Of a DNA stretch of 39,976 nt, positions 3,161 to 33,178 are shown piece after piece. A program made the translations under genes and the position numbers. Source of the stretch: a virus (Duplodnaviria; Caudoviricetes). The stretch is from the IMG/VR virus record IMGVR_UViG_3300005405_000055, positions 1-39,976 of that record, one strand, 5' to 3'. Below the pieces are notes generated by a model that worked only from the letters and a program-made list of their open reading frames with translations, did not search any database and had not been told where the DNA came from. The number at the start of each line of letters is the position of its first letter. Position 1 is the stretch's first letter.

Positions 3161-3316
3161 TTAGTCACCCCCCTGAGCTTCATGTTCTAGCTGAATAACC
3201 ATGCTGGCTATATAAAATAACTTGTCCTGCTCCGATAGGCTTAACAATGATGAAAGAGCATGGCCCCGCTGTAAATAGTGGTGAAACATAGCGAAAAGGT
3301 CATGCTCTCCTATTAG
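3161..3316 (-). CDS. -1 frameshift extension of tail assembly chaperone (gpGT-like part)
   Basis: The -1 frame after A AAA AAC (3316-3322) reads LIGEHDLFAMFHHYLQRGHALSSLLSLSEQDKLFYIASMVIQLEHEAQGGD* and ends 2 nt before the tape measure start. Confidence 0.8.
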   Translation of the reverse strand, partial: LIGEHDLFAMFHHYLQRGHALSSLLSLSEQDKLFYIASMVIQLEHEAQGGD

Positions 3317-3681
3317 TTTTTTATTTCCTCAACCATCCTTACAGAATCTTCGTCATACCCTGCCATCTTAACTATTTCCCCAGATATCCGGGCAATCTCT
3401 CCAGGTTCAAAGATTGCATCTATAATATCCATGGGCTTTATGCACCCATAAGCAGCATGAAGACTAGCATCTTTTAGATTAGGCTCAATAGTGCATTCAT
3501 AAATTAGGTAGCAATTACCCTCTTGATCCATATCAAACGCATCAAGAATAAGAGCCCGGTCGGGTTTTTCTACAATGATTGTCCCGTCCAGGCTCTTAAC
3601 GTAAAGTTCTTTGCGTTTTTTGTGCTTCGCCTTCTTTTGATCTGCCTTAGCAATAAGATCGCTTAATTTTACTTTATTCAA
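3313..3681 (-). CDS. Tail assembly chaperone (XkdN-like, gpG)
   Basis: PNLKD..L...Y and F.PGEI motifs; ends ...EEIKN on a slippery heptamer; lies between tube and tape measure. Confidence 0.85.
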   Translation of the reverse strand: MNKVKLSDLIAKADQKKAKHKKRKELYVKSLDGTIIVEKPDRALILDAFDMDQEGNCYLIYECTIEPNLKDASLHAAYGCIKPMDIIDAIFEPGEIARISGEIVKMAGYDEDSVRMVEEIKN

Positions 3682-15181: not shown

Positions 15182-16522
15182 CTAATTGTTTACCTTTATG
15201 CCCTTCTGTCCAGTGAATTCTTCCCACCTGTGAACAATGACATCGCAATATACCGGATCCAGTTCCAGGCCATAACATATTCGTCCTGTCTGTTCAGCAG
15301 CTATTAATGTGGAGCCGCTCCCAAGGAAGCTATCTAAAATGATGTCTTCGCGCTTACTCGAATTTCTTATAGCCCGGGCACATAATGGTATAGGCTTCAT
15401 GGTCGGGTGTTCAGCATTACGCAATGGTTTATCAAACCGCCAAATTGTTGTCAATGAATCATCACCCTGGTTCAACACCTCATAGTCTGCTACCCGTATA
15501 GAAACTGTTTCAATTCCGTTAGAAAAAGTAATTATTTTACCTTCGTTATCTTCCCGAACTGTTATACCTTCGGACTCATCGATTATAGTACTCTGTTTTC
15601 GTCCTCCATACCATTTGTGCTTAGCGCCAGGTTTCCAACCATACAAGATAGGTTCATGTCTTGCTTGATAGTCCATCCTACCAATAACGAACTGGTTCTT
15701 GACCCAGATGATACACTGCTTGACCAACCAGCCAGCATCTGCCAAGGCTGTTCTGAAATTAATCCCTTCACTCTCTGCATGGCAAATATAAAAGGCTCCG
15801 CCCGGTTCGGTTGCCCTTAGCATGTTTAAAAATGAAGCCCGGAGAAATTTATAAAACTCATCCGGGCTCATCTTGTCATTCATGATTTTTAGTTTGTCTT
15901 TGGTACCACCGGTATAATCAACGTTATAAGGTGGATCAGTGAATACCATACTGGCCTGACTACCGTCTATTAACTTGTCTACATCTGCCTGCGCCGTTGC
16001 ATCACCACACATTATCCGATGCCGCCCCAGTTGCCATATGTCCCCGGGATTCGTCTCCGGTTCAACTATACTTTCAATTGCTGCTTCGAGGTCGAAATTA
16101 TCTTCTTTTGCCTCAGGCTGAAACTGTTCAAAGATATCACCGATTTCCACAGTATCAAACCCAGTAAGCTCAATATCAAAAGCCCCGGTATTAAGTTCCT
16201 CTAAGAGTTCCTTCAACCGGGGCAAATCCCAATCACCACTTATTTTATTTAGAGCCAGATTAAGAGCCTTTTCTTTATCTTCTGGGAGATCAACAACCGA
16301 GACTTCAACCTCTTCTCGGCCCAACTCCTGCAGGACCTTTAACCTCTGGTGGCCGCCAACTACGTTGCCAGTTCGTTGGTTCCATATGATAGGCTCAATG
16401 TAGTCAAATTCCAGAATAGACTTTTTAAGCTTTTCGTATTCCGGATCCCCACGCTGCAAATCTTTACGAGGATTATATTGGGTAGGATTTAGCTCAGATA
16501 TGGCCTTTAATATAACATTCAA
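15182..16522 (-). CDS. ParB-like N-terminal domain fused to N6/N4 DNA methyltransferase
   Basis: YNPRK...VVGGHQRL ParB-like part; DPPY, HPTMKP and DSFLGSGST motifs. TTG start at 16522 after GGGGAGAG. Confidence 0.92.
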   Translation of the reverse strand: MNVILKAISELNPTQYNPRKDLQRGDPEYEKLKKSILEFDYIEPIIWNQRTGNVVGGHQRLKVLQELGREEVEVSVVDLPEDKEKALNLALNKISGDWDLPRLKELLEELNTGAFDIELTGFDTVEIGDIFEQFQPEAKEDNFDLEAAIESIVEPETNPGDIWQLGRHRIMCGDATAQADVDKLIDGSQASMVFTDPPYNVDYTGGTKDKLKIMNDKMSPDEFYKFLRASFLNMLRATEPGGAFYICHAESEGINFRTALADAGWLVKQCIIWVKNQFVIGRMDYQARHEPILYGWKPGAKHKWYGGRKQSTIIDESEGITVREDNEGKIITFSNGIETVSIRVADYEVLNQGDDSLTTIWRFDKPLRNAEHPTMKPIPLCARAIRNSSKREDIILDSFLGSGSTLIAAEQTGRICYGLELDPVYCDVIVHRWEEFTGQKGIKVNN

Positions 16523-16641
16523 TTTAATATCTCTCCCCCAAAAAAGCAATAGAGCCCAAAGGCTCTAAATAAAGCGTATTATATATTCAACATTCTAGCA
16601 ATTAACCACGGATTACTCAGCTTTTAAATTATGCATCTCAT

Positions 16642-28712: not shown

Positions 28713-28744
28713 ATAGCATATTTAATGAAAGGTAGTGGGAGCCT

Positions 28745-28933
28745 TTGAAACCAAAAAAAAGATTAAATGAGCTATTTACCGCACCTGCGACCGATCTTTG
28801 TAGGGGTAAGGCTCCTTCCTTGTTGAGAGAAATGCATGAAACAGGTAAAGACTTGATTGTAATAAAAAATAGCAAACCGTATGCAGTTGTATTGTCTTAC
28901 CAAAAGTATATTGAATTGACGAACGAGGAATAA
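28745..28933 (+). CDS. Phd/YefM-family antitoxin-like protein
   Basis: ATDL..G.A..LLRE...LIVIKNSKPYAVVLSYQKY motif. Confidence 0.75.
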   Translation: MKPKKRLNELFTAPATDLCRGKAPSLLREMHETGKDLIVIKNSKPYAVVLSYQKYIELTNEE

Positions 28934-28936
28934 ATT

Positions 28937-30937
28937 ATGGAGGTTAAGATTATGAACTTGAATGAAATTTTTAAAAACACAAATTATGATGATACTCTGT
29001 TTTCAGAAGAAGCCAAGCGCACTCTTCAAGAAAAAATAGTAATGAAAAATATCCGTGGAATTACTTATCCCTATGTTCAGTGTCTAATTCGCAAAAAAGA
29101 TATAAAGTTAACTCCTGAAGAAGCCGTTCGCCAATTGTATATTGATAAACTCATTAATGACTATAAATATCCTGCTGGCAGGATTCGGCTTGAAACACCT
29201 ATTTATTTTGGCAGAGAGGTAAAACGCGCAGATATAATCATTAACGATAAGGACCGCCCTACCGTTCCCTACATCATAATCGAGTTGAAGATGCCCAAAC
29301 TAACTGATGGAAAGGGGCAATTGAAATCATACTGCAACGCCACAGGTGCGCCTATCGGAGTATGGACTAATGGCGAGCAAGTTTCTTGCTATAATCGCAA
29401 AGATCCCAACTATTTTGAAGCAATTACGGATATTCCAACGGCTAATCAAAAACTGTCAGATATTATTAACGAAAAATTCACATATGAAGATCTTAAAAAA
29501 ATTGATAAAATTCAAAATCAGAAAAGGTCGTTGCGCGATTTTATCAAGGAAATTGAAGACGAAGTGTTGGCAAGTGCAGGGGTTGATTCCTTTGAAGAGG
29601 TTTTTAAACTAATTTTCACTAAACTGTACGATGAATTGATTTGCGCAAGAGATAGGAGTGCCTATTTGCAATTTAGAAATGGTGGGGGTACAGATTTCGA
29701 ATTAAAAGAAAAGATTCAAGATCTGTTTGATGATGCAAAAAAGAAATGGAAAGGCGTATTTACGGAAGATAGCAAAATCCTATTATCGCCTTCACATTTA
29801 GGGATTTGTGTTGCTTCTTTGCAAGATGTAAAGCTCTTTAATAATAATCTTGACGTTGTTGACGATGCTTTTGAATATCTGATGAGTAAAGCACAAAAAG
29901 GTGAAAAAGGTCAATACTTTACCCCTCGTTATGTGATTGATATGTGCGTCAAAATGATGAATCCGAGTGAAAAGGATTATATTATTGATACCGCTTGCGG
30001 TAGCGCTGGGTTTACTGTTCACAGTATTTTTTATGTATGGAAATCTATCCGCCGATCAAAGGGATTGGACGAAGGAGAGGATTATACTGCCGACCAGAGA
30101 ACAAATGAGGAAATTAACTATGTTCGTGACAAGGTATTTGGAATCGATTTTGACGAAAAAACAGTCCGCGTTGCAAGAACTCTAAACCTTATCGCCGGGG
30201 ATGGGCAAACAAACATCTTACATTTGAACACTTTAGATTATTCTCGTTGGGACGAAATCACAAAACAAGAAGATTGGAACGATACCTATAATGAAGGTTT
30301 TTATAAGTTGAAAAAGATGCGTCCAAAAGGCGCAAAGGACTATAGTCAATTCCAATTTGACCTTGTTATGGCTAACCCACCTTTCGCAGGAGATATAAAG
30401 GAAAATACAATTATTTCCCACTATGAGTTAGGCAAAAACACTCAGGGTAACTGGCAGAAAAAAATAGGCAGAGACATTATGTTTATCGAGCGCAATCTAA
30501 ATTTCCTAAAATCCGGTGGAAGAATGGCAATCGTCTTGCCTCAGGGTAGGTTAAACAATTCCAGTGACAAAGCGATTCGTGATTTCATTGCTGAGCGTTG
30601 CCGCATACTTGCTATTGTAGGCTTGCATGGTAATGTATTTAAACCACATACAGGTACAAAGACCTCCGTTTTGTTTGTTCAAAAGTGGGATGATAAGTTA
30701 TGCCCTAAAAAGGAAGATTACTCGATTTTCTTTGCAACAATGCAGGAGCTTAGCAAAGACAATTCTGGTGAAAAGATATACGTTAAGGATTCAGAAAACG
30801 GTGAAAATGTACTTGATAGCCACGGTCATTTAATTGTTAAGCATGACTTATATAACCATGATAATAAAACGCAGGATGGCATTGCAGAAGCATTCATTGA
30901 ATTTGCTAAAAAGGAAGGTTTAAGTTTTTTTCGATAA
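28937..30937 (+). CDS. Fused restriction endonuclease-N6 adenine methyltransferase (Type IIG/IIB-like RM subunit)
   Basis: N-terminal HsdR_N-like TPEEAVRQ..ADII..IELK; GQYFTPR, DTACGSAGF and NPPF motifs. Alternative start at 28952 after GGAGG. Confidence 0.92.
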   Translation: MEVKIMNLNEIFKNTNYDDTLFSEEAKRTLQEKIVMKNIRGITYPYVQCLIRKKDIKLTPEEAVRQLYIDKLINDYKYPAGRIRLETPIYFGREVKRADIIINDKDRPTVPYIIIELKMPKLTDGKGQLKSYCNATGAPIGVWTNGEQVSCYNRKDPNYFEAITDIPTANQKLSDIINEKFTYEDLKKIDKIQNQKRSLRDFIKEIEDEVLASAGVDSFEEVFKLIFTKLYDELICARDRSAYLQFRNGGGTDFELKEKIQDLFDDAKKKWKGVFTEDSKILLSPSHLGICVASLQDVKLFNNNLDVVDDAFEYLMSKAQKGEKGQYFTPRYVIDMCVKMMNPSEKDYIIDTACGSAGFTVHSIFYVWKSIRRSKGLDEGEDYTADQRTNEEINYVRDKVFGIDFDEKTVRVARTLNLIAGDGQTNILHLNTLDYSRWDEITKQEDWNDTYNEGFYKLKKMRPKGAKDYSQFQFDLVMANPPFAGDIKENTIISHYELGKNTQGNWQKKIGRDIMFIERNLNFLKSGGRMAIVLPQGRLNNSSDKAIRDFIAERCRILAIVGLHGNVFKPHTGTKTSVLFVQKWDDKLCPKKEDYSIFFATMQELSKDNSGEKIYVKDSENGENVLDSHGHLIVKHDLYNHDNKTQDGIAEAFIEFAKKEGLSFFR

Positions 30938-30992
30938 GCCCGTCCGTTGAACCTTTTAATGAACCGAGATATAAGGCTTTGATGGATGGGCT
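30925..30992 (+). other. Putative -1 programmed ribosomal frameshift signal
   Basis: T TTT TTT (30925-30931), 5-nt spacer, hairpin 30937-30955 paired with 30973-30992. Confidence 0.65.
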
Positions 30993-32409
30993 GGAGGCAG
31001 TTGAAATTAACCTTAGTGTATGCAAAGATATTATTGATTTTAGAATAGATGCAAATACATATAAGAAAAACTACATTAAATCTGAAAAACTAATAAGCGA
31101 AAAACCAAATAAAAAAATTGAAGATCTTTCAATTTCGGTTCAAAACTTTGGTGCGTACTCATTATGTAACTTTATCAATTTTACGAATACAGGTATCCCT
31201 TTTTTAATGACATACAATATTCGTCATAATTACATTGATTGGAATATAGAAAAGTGTGTTGATGTAGAGAGCCATAATAAACTCTATAAATCTCATTGCT
31301 TTAAGAATCAAATATTAGTAACTATGGCAGGAGAATACCTAGGAAGGGTTGCTGTCTATAATAGAGATTTTGTTTGTAGCTCAAATCAAGCAATAGCAAA
31401 AATAACATTAAAAAATGGCATAAGCCCATATATGATCTCCACTTTTTTAAACTCTATTCATGGTCAAAATCAAATTAATAGATATAGGACAATAACAGGA
31501 CAGCCAAATATTAATATGTCGCTAATAAAAAATTTAAGGATACCAATTTTTACAATTGCTTTTCAATGTGAAATCGAAAATGCCGTTAAAGCTGCCCATG
31601 TTAGATTAGAAAAATCACAATCTCTCTATGAAGATGCTGAGAAAATATTACTTAAGGAATTGGGCTTAACCGTTTTTGCATTAAGTAAAAAAAATTTTTC
31701 GATAAAAAGCTTCTCAGAAAGTCTCGGAATATCCGGAAGATTGGATGCGGAATATTACCAGCCAAAATATGACGAACTACTCTCTGCTATAGCAAAATAT
31801 AACAGTCATAAGCTAGGCGATATCGTAAATATAAAAAAATCTATTGAGCCTGGCAGTGAAGCCTATCAAGAAGAAGGTATCCCCTTTATTAGAGTATCTA
31901 ATATTTCCAAATTTGAACTTACTACGTCTGAAATACATTTAGACAGGGCATTTTATGAAATCGAAAAATTAAAACCACTTAAAGATACAATTTTACTTAC
32001 TAAAGACGGAAGTGTCGGTATTGCTTATAAGGTTAATGAGGATCTTGATGTTATTACCTCGGGCGCGATTTTACATCTTACGGTAAAGAATAATGGATTT
32101 CTTCCCGACTATCTCACATTGGTCTTGAATTCGATAGTAGTACAATTACAAGCTCAAAGAGATGCCGGCGGCTCAATTATTCAACATTGGAAACCTTCTG
32201 AAATTGAAAAGGTGCGTATACCCATTCTAGATATTCCTGCACAACAGATAATCACAAATAGAATTCAAAAATCTTTTGCTCTTCGTAAAGAGGCCGCCAA
32301 ACTACTCGAACAGGCAAAACAAACGGTCGAAATAGCAATAGAATATGGAGAGGAAAGTGCTTTGAATTTTCTAAAAACCGCTGTTGAGGGAGTTGATATA
32401 AATGCCTAA
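30979..32409 (+). CDS. HsdS-like specificity subunit with two TRDs (frame open from 30910)
   Basis: Two repeats starting RIDANTY / RLDAEYY; SNQAIA, GQPNIN and ILLTKDGSVG motifs. Confidence 0.9.
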   Translation: MMDGLEAVEINLSVCKDIIDFRIDANTYKKNYIKSEKLISEKPNKKIEDLSISVQNFGAYSLCNFINFTNTGIPFLMTYNIRHNYIDWNIEKCVDVESHNKLYKSHCFKNQILVTMAGEYLGRVAVYNRDFVCSSNQAIAKITLKNGISPYMISTFLNSIHGQNQINRYRTITGQPNINMSLIKNLRIPIFTIAFQCEIENAVKAAHVRLEKSQSLYEDAEKILLKELGLTVFALSKKNFSIKSFSESLGISGRLDAEYYQPKYDELLSAIAKYNSHKLGDIVNIKKSIEPGSEAYQEEGIPFIRVSNISKFELTTSEIHLDRAFYEIEKLKPLKDTILLTKDGSVGIAYKVNEDLDVITSGAILHLTVKNNGFLPDYLTLVLNSIVVQLQAQRDAGGSIIQHWKPSEIEKVRIPILDIPAQQIITNRIQKSFALRKEAAKLLEQAKQTVEIAIEYGEESALNFLKTAVEGVDINA

Positions 32410-33178
32410 TTATCATGATTGGATTGACAAAATAGACATAGAAATAGATTATTTTTCAGCATTCATAAAAGCATGGATCGCTTTTAATGCTTGGTATCGT
32501 TCAGATTATAGCGAACGCAGCGATAGAGAAATCATCGAGAAAATCAAAAATGAAAGCAACCGTTTCCGTACATATATTTGTAATTATTTAGATGGGAGAG
32601 ACAAAAATTCTTTAGAATTTCAAAAGAGCATTGGAGAGTTACATCGCGCGCTTGCAAATGCAGCTATAACAACACAGGAACGAGGCGGAATAAGAATGCC
32701 TATTTCATTTACAGAAATCGCACTTACTAATCCGCAAACAAATACTGAAGCAACTTATCGTGTGTGCAATTATAAAGTTCAACGGACAGGATCAAAAGTT
32801 AAAACTGAAATAATGAATATTCAAAAAACGACAACCCATTTTTCTTTTATACAAGATAACTATGATATTGACGAATTACAACGTCATGGAGATTTCTTTA
32901 ACCTAAGTGATGAAAGAAAATTGCAGTGTTTGGCAAACTATCGCATGATTTGTCCATATATATCAGAAAGCATTTTATCCTCAGAAACAACGGCGAAAAT
33001 ACTTGGTGAGTTTGGGTTTGTTAATGACAATATAAAGATCAGTAGAGGTATCGTTGAAATACTATATTTGCTGAGGTGTTCACTCATGCATGGAGAATTA
33101 TCTCCTGATCGTAATGCGAGTGAAGTATTTAAATATGCATATGAAATACTTGTAGCCGTATTGAAAAAATTAGCATGA
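32402..33178 (+). CDS. HEPN-like protein (ApeA-like)
   Basis: N-terminal FIKAWIAFNAWY helix and C-terminal LYLLRCSLMHG (Rx4H); overlaps the S stop by 8 nt. Confidence 0.65.
   Translation: MPNYHDWIDKIDIEIDYFSAFIKAWIAFNAWYRSDYSERSDREIIEKIKNESNRFRTYICNYLDGRDKNSLEFQKSIGELHRALANAAITTQERGGIRMPISFTEIALTNPQTNTEATYRVCNYKVQRTGSKVKTEIMNIQKTTTHFSFIQDNYDIDELQRHGDFFNLSDERKLQCLANYRMICPYISESILSSETTAKILGEFGFVNDNIKISRGIVEILYLLRCSLMHGELSPDRNASEVFKYAYEILVAVLKKLA

Follow-up and report, generated by a model that had tools for sequence, protein, structure and literature searches.

A conserved and most likely programmed −1 ribosomal frameshift signal between the restriction-modification and specificity genes of a Type IIB-like family

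We analyzed a 39,976-nucleotide stretch of viral DNA (positions 1 to 39,976 of IMG/VR record IMGVR_UViG_3300005405_000055; "the window" below) in which a restriction-modification (RM) gene is followed by a specificity (S) frame. Judging from comparison with related loci, the junction between them is real and conserved, and it most likely acts as a signal for programmed −1 ribosomal frameshifting; we put the probability of this at about 0.85. The tRNA-Phe pairs would slip by −1 on the heptamer U_UUU_UUU as the ribosome meets a hairpin. Ribosomes that do not shift would stop one codon later (at 30935) and yield free RM, while those that shift would add S and yield an RM-S fusion, with the predicted junction peptide ...GLSFFSISPSVEPF..., from the same mRNA.

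The junction in the window and across the family

An earlier sequence-only reading of the window had proposed that RM ends in AGT TTT TTT CGA TAA, that S lies in the −1 frame and is open from 30910, and that a long stem begins 5 nt past U_UUU_UUU. All of this is confirmed. The open stretch of the −1 frame spans 30910-32409, reading ...SISPSVEPFNEPRYKALMDGLEAVEI, and the stem pairs 30937-30951 with 30978-30992 (15 pairs, four of them G-U) and then, past a one-base bulge, CCTT with AAGG, for 19 pairs in total. The minimum free energy fold of 30937-30995 is −25.3 kcal/mol (z = −5.93), which none of 200 shuffles equaled. It is also the most stable of the 683 59-nt windows over RM and S (the next non-overlapping one is at −18.1). 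The pattern T7-N5/6-AGCCC, which was derived from the site itself, occurs once in the window, as against 0.04 expected. Rfam gave no match at the junction at E values up to 1. We found no terminator-like site at the junction, so we do not read the hairpin as an intrinsic terminator; a promoter scan was at chance level (24 vs. 22).

The sequence-only reading also had the candidate starts of S buried in the stem, with no ribosome binding site. The first part stands, as TTG/ATG at 30979-84 lie in the 3' arm. The second needs amending: an AAGG (30973-76) lies 5 nt upstream of ATG 30982, although it is the only such word and is itself paired inside the stem. Similarly, the proposed products of about 666 amino acids for RM and about 1157 for RM-S (665 + 492) fit the predicted lengths, but ATG 28952 is as likely to be the start of RM and has a better Shine-Dalgarno (SD) sequence (GGAGGT, 7 nt upstream). 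RM would then have 661 amino acids, as does the database protein P0123, and the fusion would have 1152.

To see how general the junction is, we collected 324 loci, of which 207 had a match to the C-terminal half of RM. Of these, 178 had the motif of the RM end as well as that of the S linker, and they gave 129 distinct junctions. S is in the −1 frame in 126 of these, in frame in two, and in the +1 frame in one. All 129 junctions have an in-frame X XXY YYZ heptamer, compared to 0.48% per codon in the bodies of RM genes. Across all phases, the heptamers are T7 (87 junctions), T6C (20), G_GGA_AAG (19), A6G (1), or other (2, one of them scored as AAATTTT). The stem starts 5 nt past the heptamer in 124 of 129 junctions. 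This spacing holds even where the heptamer is G_GGA_AAG, which is shifted 2-14 codons downstream and is found mainly in Bacteroidota with a longer RM tail. The conservation of the U-run and the −1 phase, which the sequence-only reading had named as a check, was thus found. Since the 7-T run is common to 87 junctions, it is not an assembly error of eight T's. The one public run listed as holding the stretch, a DNA run, also has 7 T (contig depth of 23, no indel), but it is possibly the source of the record and so is not independent; no RNA run was listed.

Codon usage points in the same direction. In all 80 distinct U-run junctions, T is the third base of the serine codon that supplies the first U (34-38% background); in the G_GGA_AAG class, where this codon lies outside the signal, it ends in T in only 9 of 16. 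For the possible upstream SD, the picture is mixed: a lysine codon is AAG in 32 of 46 long-linker junctions (41% background), and the G_GGA_AAG class shows no such enrichment. An SD-like AAGGA[AG] ends about 8 nt upstream of the heptamer in 74 of the 129 junctions and is absent from 18 of the 19 with G_GGA_AAG. Where S is complete, it usually runs for at least 400 codons from the heptamer (112 of 119).

The hairpin has z < −2 in 127 of the 129 junctions (30 shuffles each). Because the MAFFT alignment follows the protein and not the stem, pairs were counted on arm-anchored sequences. Across 77 distinct arm pairs, 92% of 14 positions can pair, as against 82% after permutation. Within each of the two main length classes (31 and 33 pairs), none of 5,000 shuffles reached the observed Watson-Crick plus G-U pairing. 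At a wobble position in the short class, we counted T-A 19, C-G 11, G-C 2, T-G 1, and C-A 0. So the arms covary within both length classes, as the −1 frameshift reading predicted, and all of the comparative tests support that reading.

By record titles and tree labels, the family spans at least eight phyla (Bacillota, Bacteroidota, Pseudomonadota, Verrucomicrobiota, Thermodesulfobacteriota, Synergistota, Chloroflexota, and Cyanobacteriota). Relatives whose S has its own start (such as L163, L168, L175, L177, L343, and L344) have no heptamer, stem, or linker. In four other relatives that lack the cassette (L173, L174, L176, and L180), a different gene, beginning MTKENS/MKKENS...VRRHWDEE, lies directly behind RM instead of S.

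We also considered heptamers inside S (31689-31698) as a second signal; they have no strong stem and are present in only 6 of 49 relatives, so we attribute them to chance. The surrounding AAAAAATTTTTCGATAA (31689-31703, + strand) echoes the junction, with FSIKSF for FSISPS, which fits an internal duplication of S. Two other leads were dropped: no S gene is annotated downstream of a match in a Helicobacter prophage (30% identity), and scanning viral contigs with a DNA pattern returned mostly unrelated loci.

Table 1. Coordinates of the RM/S locus and its junction elements in the window
Feature	Position	Strand	Remarks
RM gene	28937..30937	+	666 aa; ends GGT TTA AGT TTT TTT CGA TAA
S frame	30931..32409	+	−1 relative to RM; 492 codons past heptamer; linker SISPSVEPF...LMDGLE, then two target-recognition regions
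Possible internal SD-like AAGGAAGG	30911..30918	+	upstream of slippery site; role putative
Slippery heptamer U_UUU_UUU	30925..30931	+	X XXY YYZ in RM frame; 7 T
Spacer CGATA	30932..30936	+	5 nt; contains most of RM stop TAA (30935-30937)
Predicted stimulatory hairpin	30937..30992	+	15 + 4 pairs; 3' arm contains TTG/ATG 30979-30984

Fused relatives and the polarity of the switch

A search for longer proteins gave 204 matches, of which 120 were listed; our figures for fused proteins concern the matches listed. The 120 are in-frame RM-S proteins of 1167-1245 amino acids that are 60-66% identical to the window's RM over that region, and many are cyanobacterial by name. Their linker, LSFF-E/K/D-x-SPSVxPFDxxKYxxLMDGLE, is the same as what the window reads in the −1 frame before the first start codon. 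In other words, the type of product that we predict from frameshifting exists as a natural protein.

The DNA of the fused genes suggests that they are not plain fusions. The sole cyanobacterial junction that we read as DNA, in a fused gene on plasmid pAQ6 of Picosynechococcus PCC 7002 (L161), keeps T TTT TTT and the hairpin, and in the −1 frame a TGA follows right after the heptamer. Among the Synergistota, the phylum to which a Synergistaceae genome belongs, 25 of 251 genomes gave a match. We read 24 of 26 places, of which 20 are in frame, three are in −1, and one is distant and lacks the motif; three of the 20 in-frame places break or are cut later. The in-frame Synergistota set and L161 make up 16 distinct fused junctions. 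All 16 have T_TTT_TTY, although serine codons in these genes end in T just 19% of the time, and all 16 have a stem 5-6 nt past the heptamer (z from −1.5 to −4.9). A −1 stop codon lies within one codon in 13 of the 16 (about 15% expected for each) and within six codons in the remaining three. A plain fusion would have no reason to keep the heptamer, spacer, stem, and −1 stop. Conversely, a plain two-gene operon would have no reason to keep the heptamer in the split loci.

In the known frameshift cassettes of Escherichia coli dnaX (tau/gamma) and of IS3-family insertion sequences (IS), an X XXY YYZ heptamer is followed 5-9 nt on by a stable 3' structure, possibly with an upstream SD. In dnaX, the shift gives the short product, while in the IS elements it gives the long one. 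The junctions described here likewise have a heptamer, a short spacer, and a 3' hairpin, with a possible upstream SD. The window's locus follows the IS logic. The fused relatives are likely wired in reverse, as in dnaX: the 0 frame would give RM-S, and a shift to −1 would reach the stop and give RM. It is likely, on this comparison of sequences, that both wirings converge on RM plus RM-S. The family differs from dnaX and IS3 in that most of its heptamers are U-runs and in that it contains both polarities, with repeated switches between them.

On a quick IQ-TREE tree of 89 RM sequences (dereplicated at 88%, with L081-L160 left out), the fused state requires nine changes, seven of which are forced by well-supported branches; recombination could inflate this count. 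Under midpoint rooting, relatives without the cassette are mostly basal.

Among the matches listed, Phe-Phe is followed in 119 fused proteins by E (58), K (30), D (24), N (2), R (2), V (2), or G (1). In 114 of the 119, the residue is thus one (E, K, D, or N) whose codons create a −1 stop after TTT, in line with the reverse wiring. In some fused proteins (P0004, P0040, P0050, and P0061), palindromic repeat-like inserts (LRGFKNLAGL, PLxKGG) come right after Phe-Phe, and one junction (L072) has a repeat-like insert upstream of G_GGA_AAG. These inserts may replace or displace the hairpin.

Points against frameshifting and alternative explanations

Several points weigh against our interpretation. 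The counts are conditional on the S linker motif, with 29 of the 207 RM-bearing loci skipped. (By eye, the skipped loci include −1 junctions that the pattern missed, namely L016, L090, L103, L023, L031, and L186, as well as loci that are truncated or broken and relatives in which the gene downstream of RM has a start of its own.) The set of junctions is heavy in near-identical gut Bacillota, and the counts ignore relatedness. Covariation between the length classes tracks phylogeny. The argument from the residue after Phe-Phe in the fused proteins is drawn from protein and not from DNA. An ATG overlaps the RM stop (ATGA) in 27 of the 126 −1 junctions and is nearby in four more, and in 86 of the 126 an ATG occurs at or before the Met of LMDGL; ribosomes could reinitiate at such junctions, which may add free S. 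Finally, the single-chain Type IIB enzyme TstI is described as acting as a homotetramer without free RM (PMC4027205, available text), so free RM is not needed by every enzyme with RM and S in one chain (RMS).

An alternative to frameshifting is translational coupling, in which ribosomes stop at the RM stop and restart on S, either at an ATA/ATG that overlaps it or, after the hairpin has been opened, at TTG/ATG 30979-84. RM and S would then be separate proteins, and the hairpin would throttle S. Coupled M-S starts are described as the rule in Type I systems (PMC3510504, the part available), and 118 of the 126 −1 junctions have some ATG, GTG, or TTG in the S frame up to the motif. The window itself carries ATA, not ATG, where other junctions have the ATG that overlaps the stop. 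More broadly, the codons at the LMDG/LLEG motif vary (TTG, TTA, CTG, CTA; ATG, TTG, TTA, ATA), and SD-like words precede them in just 11 of 252 cases. Eight junctions have no ATG, GTG, or TTG until at least nine codons past the motif (one of these has a broken S). Coupling would also leave unexplained why the heptamer is present in 129 of 129 junctions, why G_GGA_AAG can take its place at a fixed spacing, and why fused genes keep it. We consider coupling very unlikely.

Transcriptional slippage would yield the same two proteins: if RNA polymerase added one U in the T run, part of the mRNA would be fused in frame. The T7 run in 87 junctions would suit this. However, T6C (the only run in 20 junctions) and G_GGA_AAG (in 19) make poor tracts for transcriptional slippage. 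Also, the hairpin is 3' of the heptamer at a fixed 5 nt, which is where a ribosome would meet it and not where it could influence the nascent RNA. We rate slippage as slightly less probable again than coupling.

The least credible alternative, which we would be surprised to see borne out, is DNA phase variation or a homopolymer error with a T8 plain fusion as the true or "on" state: phase-variable RM genes are common, and one metagenome junction has T6, but T7 or T6C is found in over 100 junctions, no T8 fusion was found, in natural fusions the additional base lies outside the run, which is still T7 or T6C, and the source-like (so not independent) contig has no indel. The T6 junction (L100:4498-4571) has S in +1 and could itself be a homopolymer error or an inactivating deletion.

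Enzyme class, stoichiometry, and genomic setting

RM combines a PD-(D/E)xK-type nuclease at its N terminus (D99, E116-L-K118) with a gamma-class N6-adenine methyltransferase (motif I at 351, NPPF at 480). Pfam finds HSDR_N_2 at 60-167 and N6_Mtase at 305-612, PADLOC gives a match to PDLC03034, and the closest match by sequence in the PDB is RM.BsaXI (E = 2.6e-22). S had no match in a PDB sequence search. Most PADLOC Specificity_I models match it in two stretches, as in Type I, and it aligns over its full length to the C-terminal half of a natural fusion, P0006 (E = 3e-53). An AlphaFold2 model of P0006 predicts long helices at 875-909 and 1110-1146, behind two beta-rich regions; the model came from a 16-row alignment with a mean pLDDT of 63, and the methyltransferase and linker are poor (pLDDT < 50 over 630-697). 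Neither the open reading frame (ORF) list nor family scans of the neighboring genes identified an ATP-dependent HsdR motor or a companion methyltransferase at the locus.

By sequence, this is the layout of Type IIB/IIG enzymes as presented in the available parts of PMC4081073 and PMC3874165. As in BsaXI and BcgI, a nuclease and gamma-class N6-adenine methyltransferase fusion is accompanied by an S unit with two target-recognition domains (TRDs), and there is no motor gene. BsaXI is described as an (RM)2S heterotrimer (PMC11997821, available text); its RM has 916 amino acids, compared to 666 here. In BcgI and BsaXI, S is a separate polypeptide with its own start, while in the 126 −1 junctions we found no conserved start or SD, and S is predicted only as a frameshift extension. 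In the single-chain enzymes AloI, CjeI, and TstI, RM and S share one ORF. The window's locus differs, with a stop at 30935, and free RM is predicted from the same mRNA, but the fused relatives do have one ORF, and both they and the predicted shift product share the RMS layout at about the same size. So, as judged from sequence, the locus is like a Type IIB (RM)2S system and yet has neither the separate S of BcgI and BsaXI nor the single ORF of AloI and TstI.

Since S has two TRDs and BsaXI and BcgI have two RM per S, the simplest function would be a 1:1 complex of RM with RM-S, that is, a covalent version of the Type IIB (RM)2S. Free RM would dock on the second TRD and conserved helix of S. 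The enzyme would methylate a bipartite site and cut on both sides of it, which would protect the lysogen from other phages. A structure prediction for the free RM tail with a natural RM-S gives weak support for this: it scored 0.35, as against 0.00 for the best control, the runs agree in at least 97% of contacts, and the partner has pLDDT of at least 80. In our calibration, passes at or below 0.60 accounted for 18 of 157 solved complexes and for both of the passing mismatches among 215, and the score may be driven by resemblance to complexes of Type I/IIB that have been solved. An engineered EcoKI M-S fusion is reported to have cut DNA in vitro only once extra M was added, which fits the idea of RM:RM-S (PMC3510504, the part available); what is available of PMC6158711 concerns an engineered EcoKI fusion only.

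We did not find ribosomal frameshifting between RM and S described in the literature that we searched, which did not extend to subscription papers or REBASE notes. The available text of PMC11997821, PMC4081073, PMC3874165, and PMC4027205 does not contain the word "frameshift," nor does that of PMC11997821 contain "slippage." Antonov 2013 (PMC3711429) has no RM-S frameshift cluster in its main text or its supplements other than file 1. For a different system, a −1 shift in a C-REase fusion was tested and no product was found (PMC3850674). The recoding mechanism and the enzyme class are each already known, and what we did not meet in this literature is their combination at RM/S.

A possible further case is the Type IIB system Hpy99XXII of Helicobacter pylori (JHP1365/JHP1364; HP1472/HP1471), which is a lead only. 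Those who studied it could identify no start codon for S past the end of RM and engineered one, and their junction primers for HP1472 and JHP1365 show RM ending in C_CCA_AAG followed by CGA TAA or TGA (PMC3936762 and its supplement, as available). Native Hpy99XXII is reported to methylate TCAN6TRG in J99 (PMC4490391, available text). It differs from our family in having a poly-G switch inside S.

We think it somewhat better than an even bet that a widespread Type IIB-like family uses ribosomal frameshifting to set a 2:1 ratio of RM to S, and that the polarity of the switch has reversed many times within it. To our knowledge, few cases of programmed ribosomal frameshifting in bacterial cellular genes are known; here it would fix the subunit stoichiometry of a defense enzyme across at least eight phyla. 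If so, many genes annotated as "single-chain" RMS would be two-product genes, start-less S genes such as that of Hpy99XXII would be further, possibly independent, cases, and many loci now annotated as split, start-less, or single-chain would need correcting. It would also answer, for this family, why there is one RM for two TRDs, an imbalance that in AloI and CjeI has been called "a mystery" (PMC3874165; also PMC4081073; available parts). The family offers a direct and cheap test of the reviews' open question about RMS enzymes with one RM for two TRDs. The two polarities would be a natural experiment on frameshift efficiency, as both should approach one free RM per RM-S.

The window, a virus record, carries its tail, head, terminase, and replication genes on the minus strand and also has a repressor (27555) and an integrase (38191). 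Given these genes, we take it to be a temperate contractile-tailed prophage, with the RM/S system as cargo. The phage's own ParB-methyltransferase (15182-16549) lies 12 kb from the RM/S locus. Directly upstream of RM, a small ORF (28736-28933, + strand) has a sub-threshold match to the Phd/YefM antitoxins (E = 1.7e-4) and is possibly a regulator of the operon. At the other end, an ORF of 258 amino acids (32402-33178, + strand) overlaps the S stop and is possibly a co-transcribed defense gene; it has a weak match to PADLOC's PDC-S25 (E = 1.9e-4), and Pfam and PHROG scans gave no family. Elsewhere in the window, the tail assembly chaperone (phrog_4976; 3162-3681, minus strand) ends in A_AAA_AAC, with a −1 extension that is open up to the tape-measure gene, which is presumably a classic frameshift of the lambda G/GT type.

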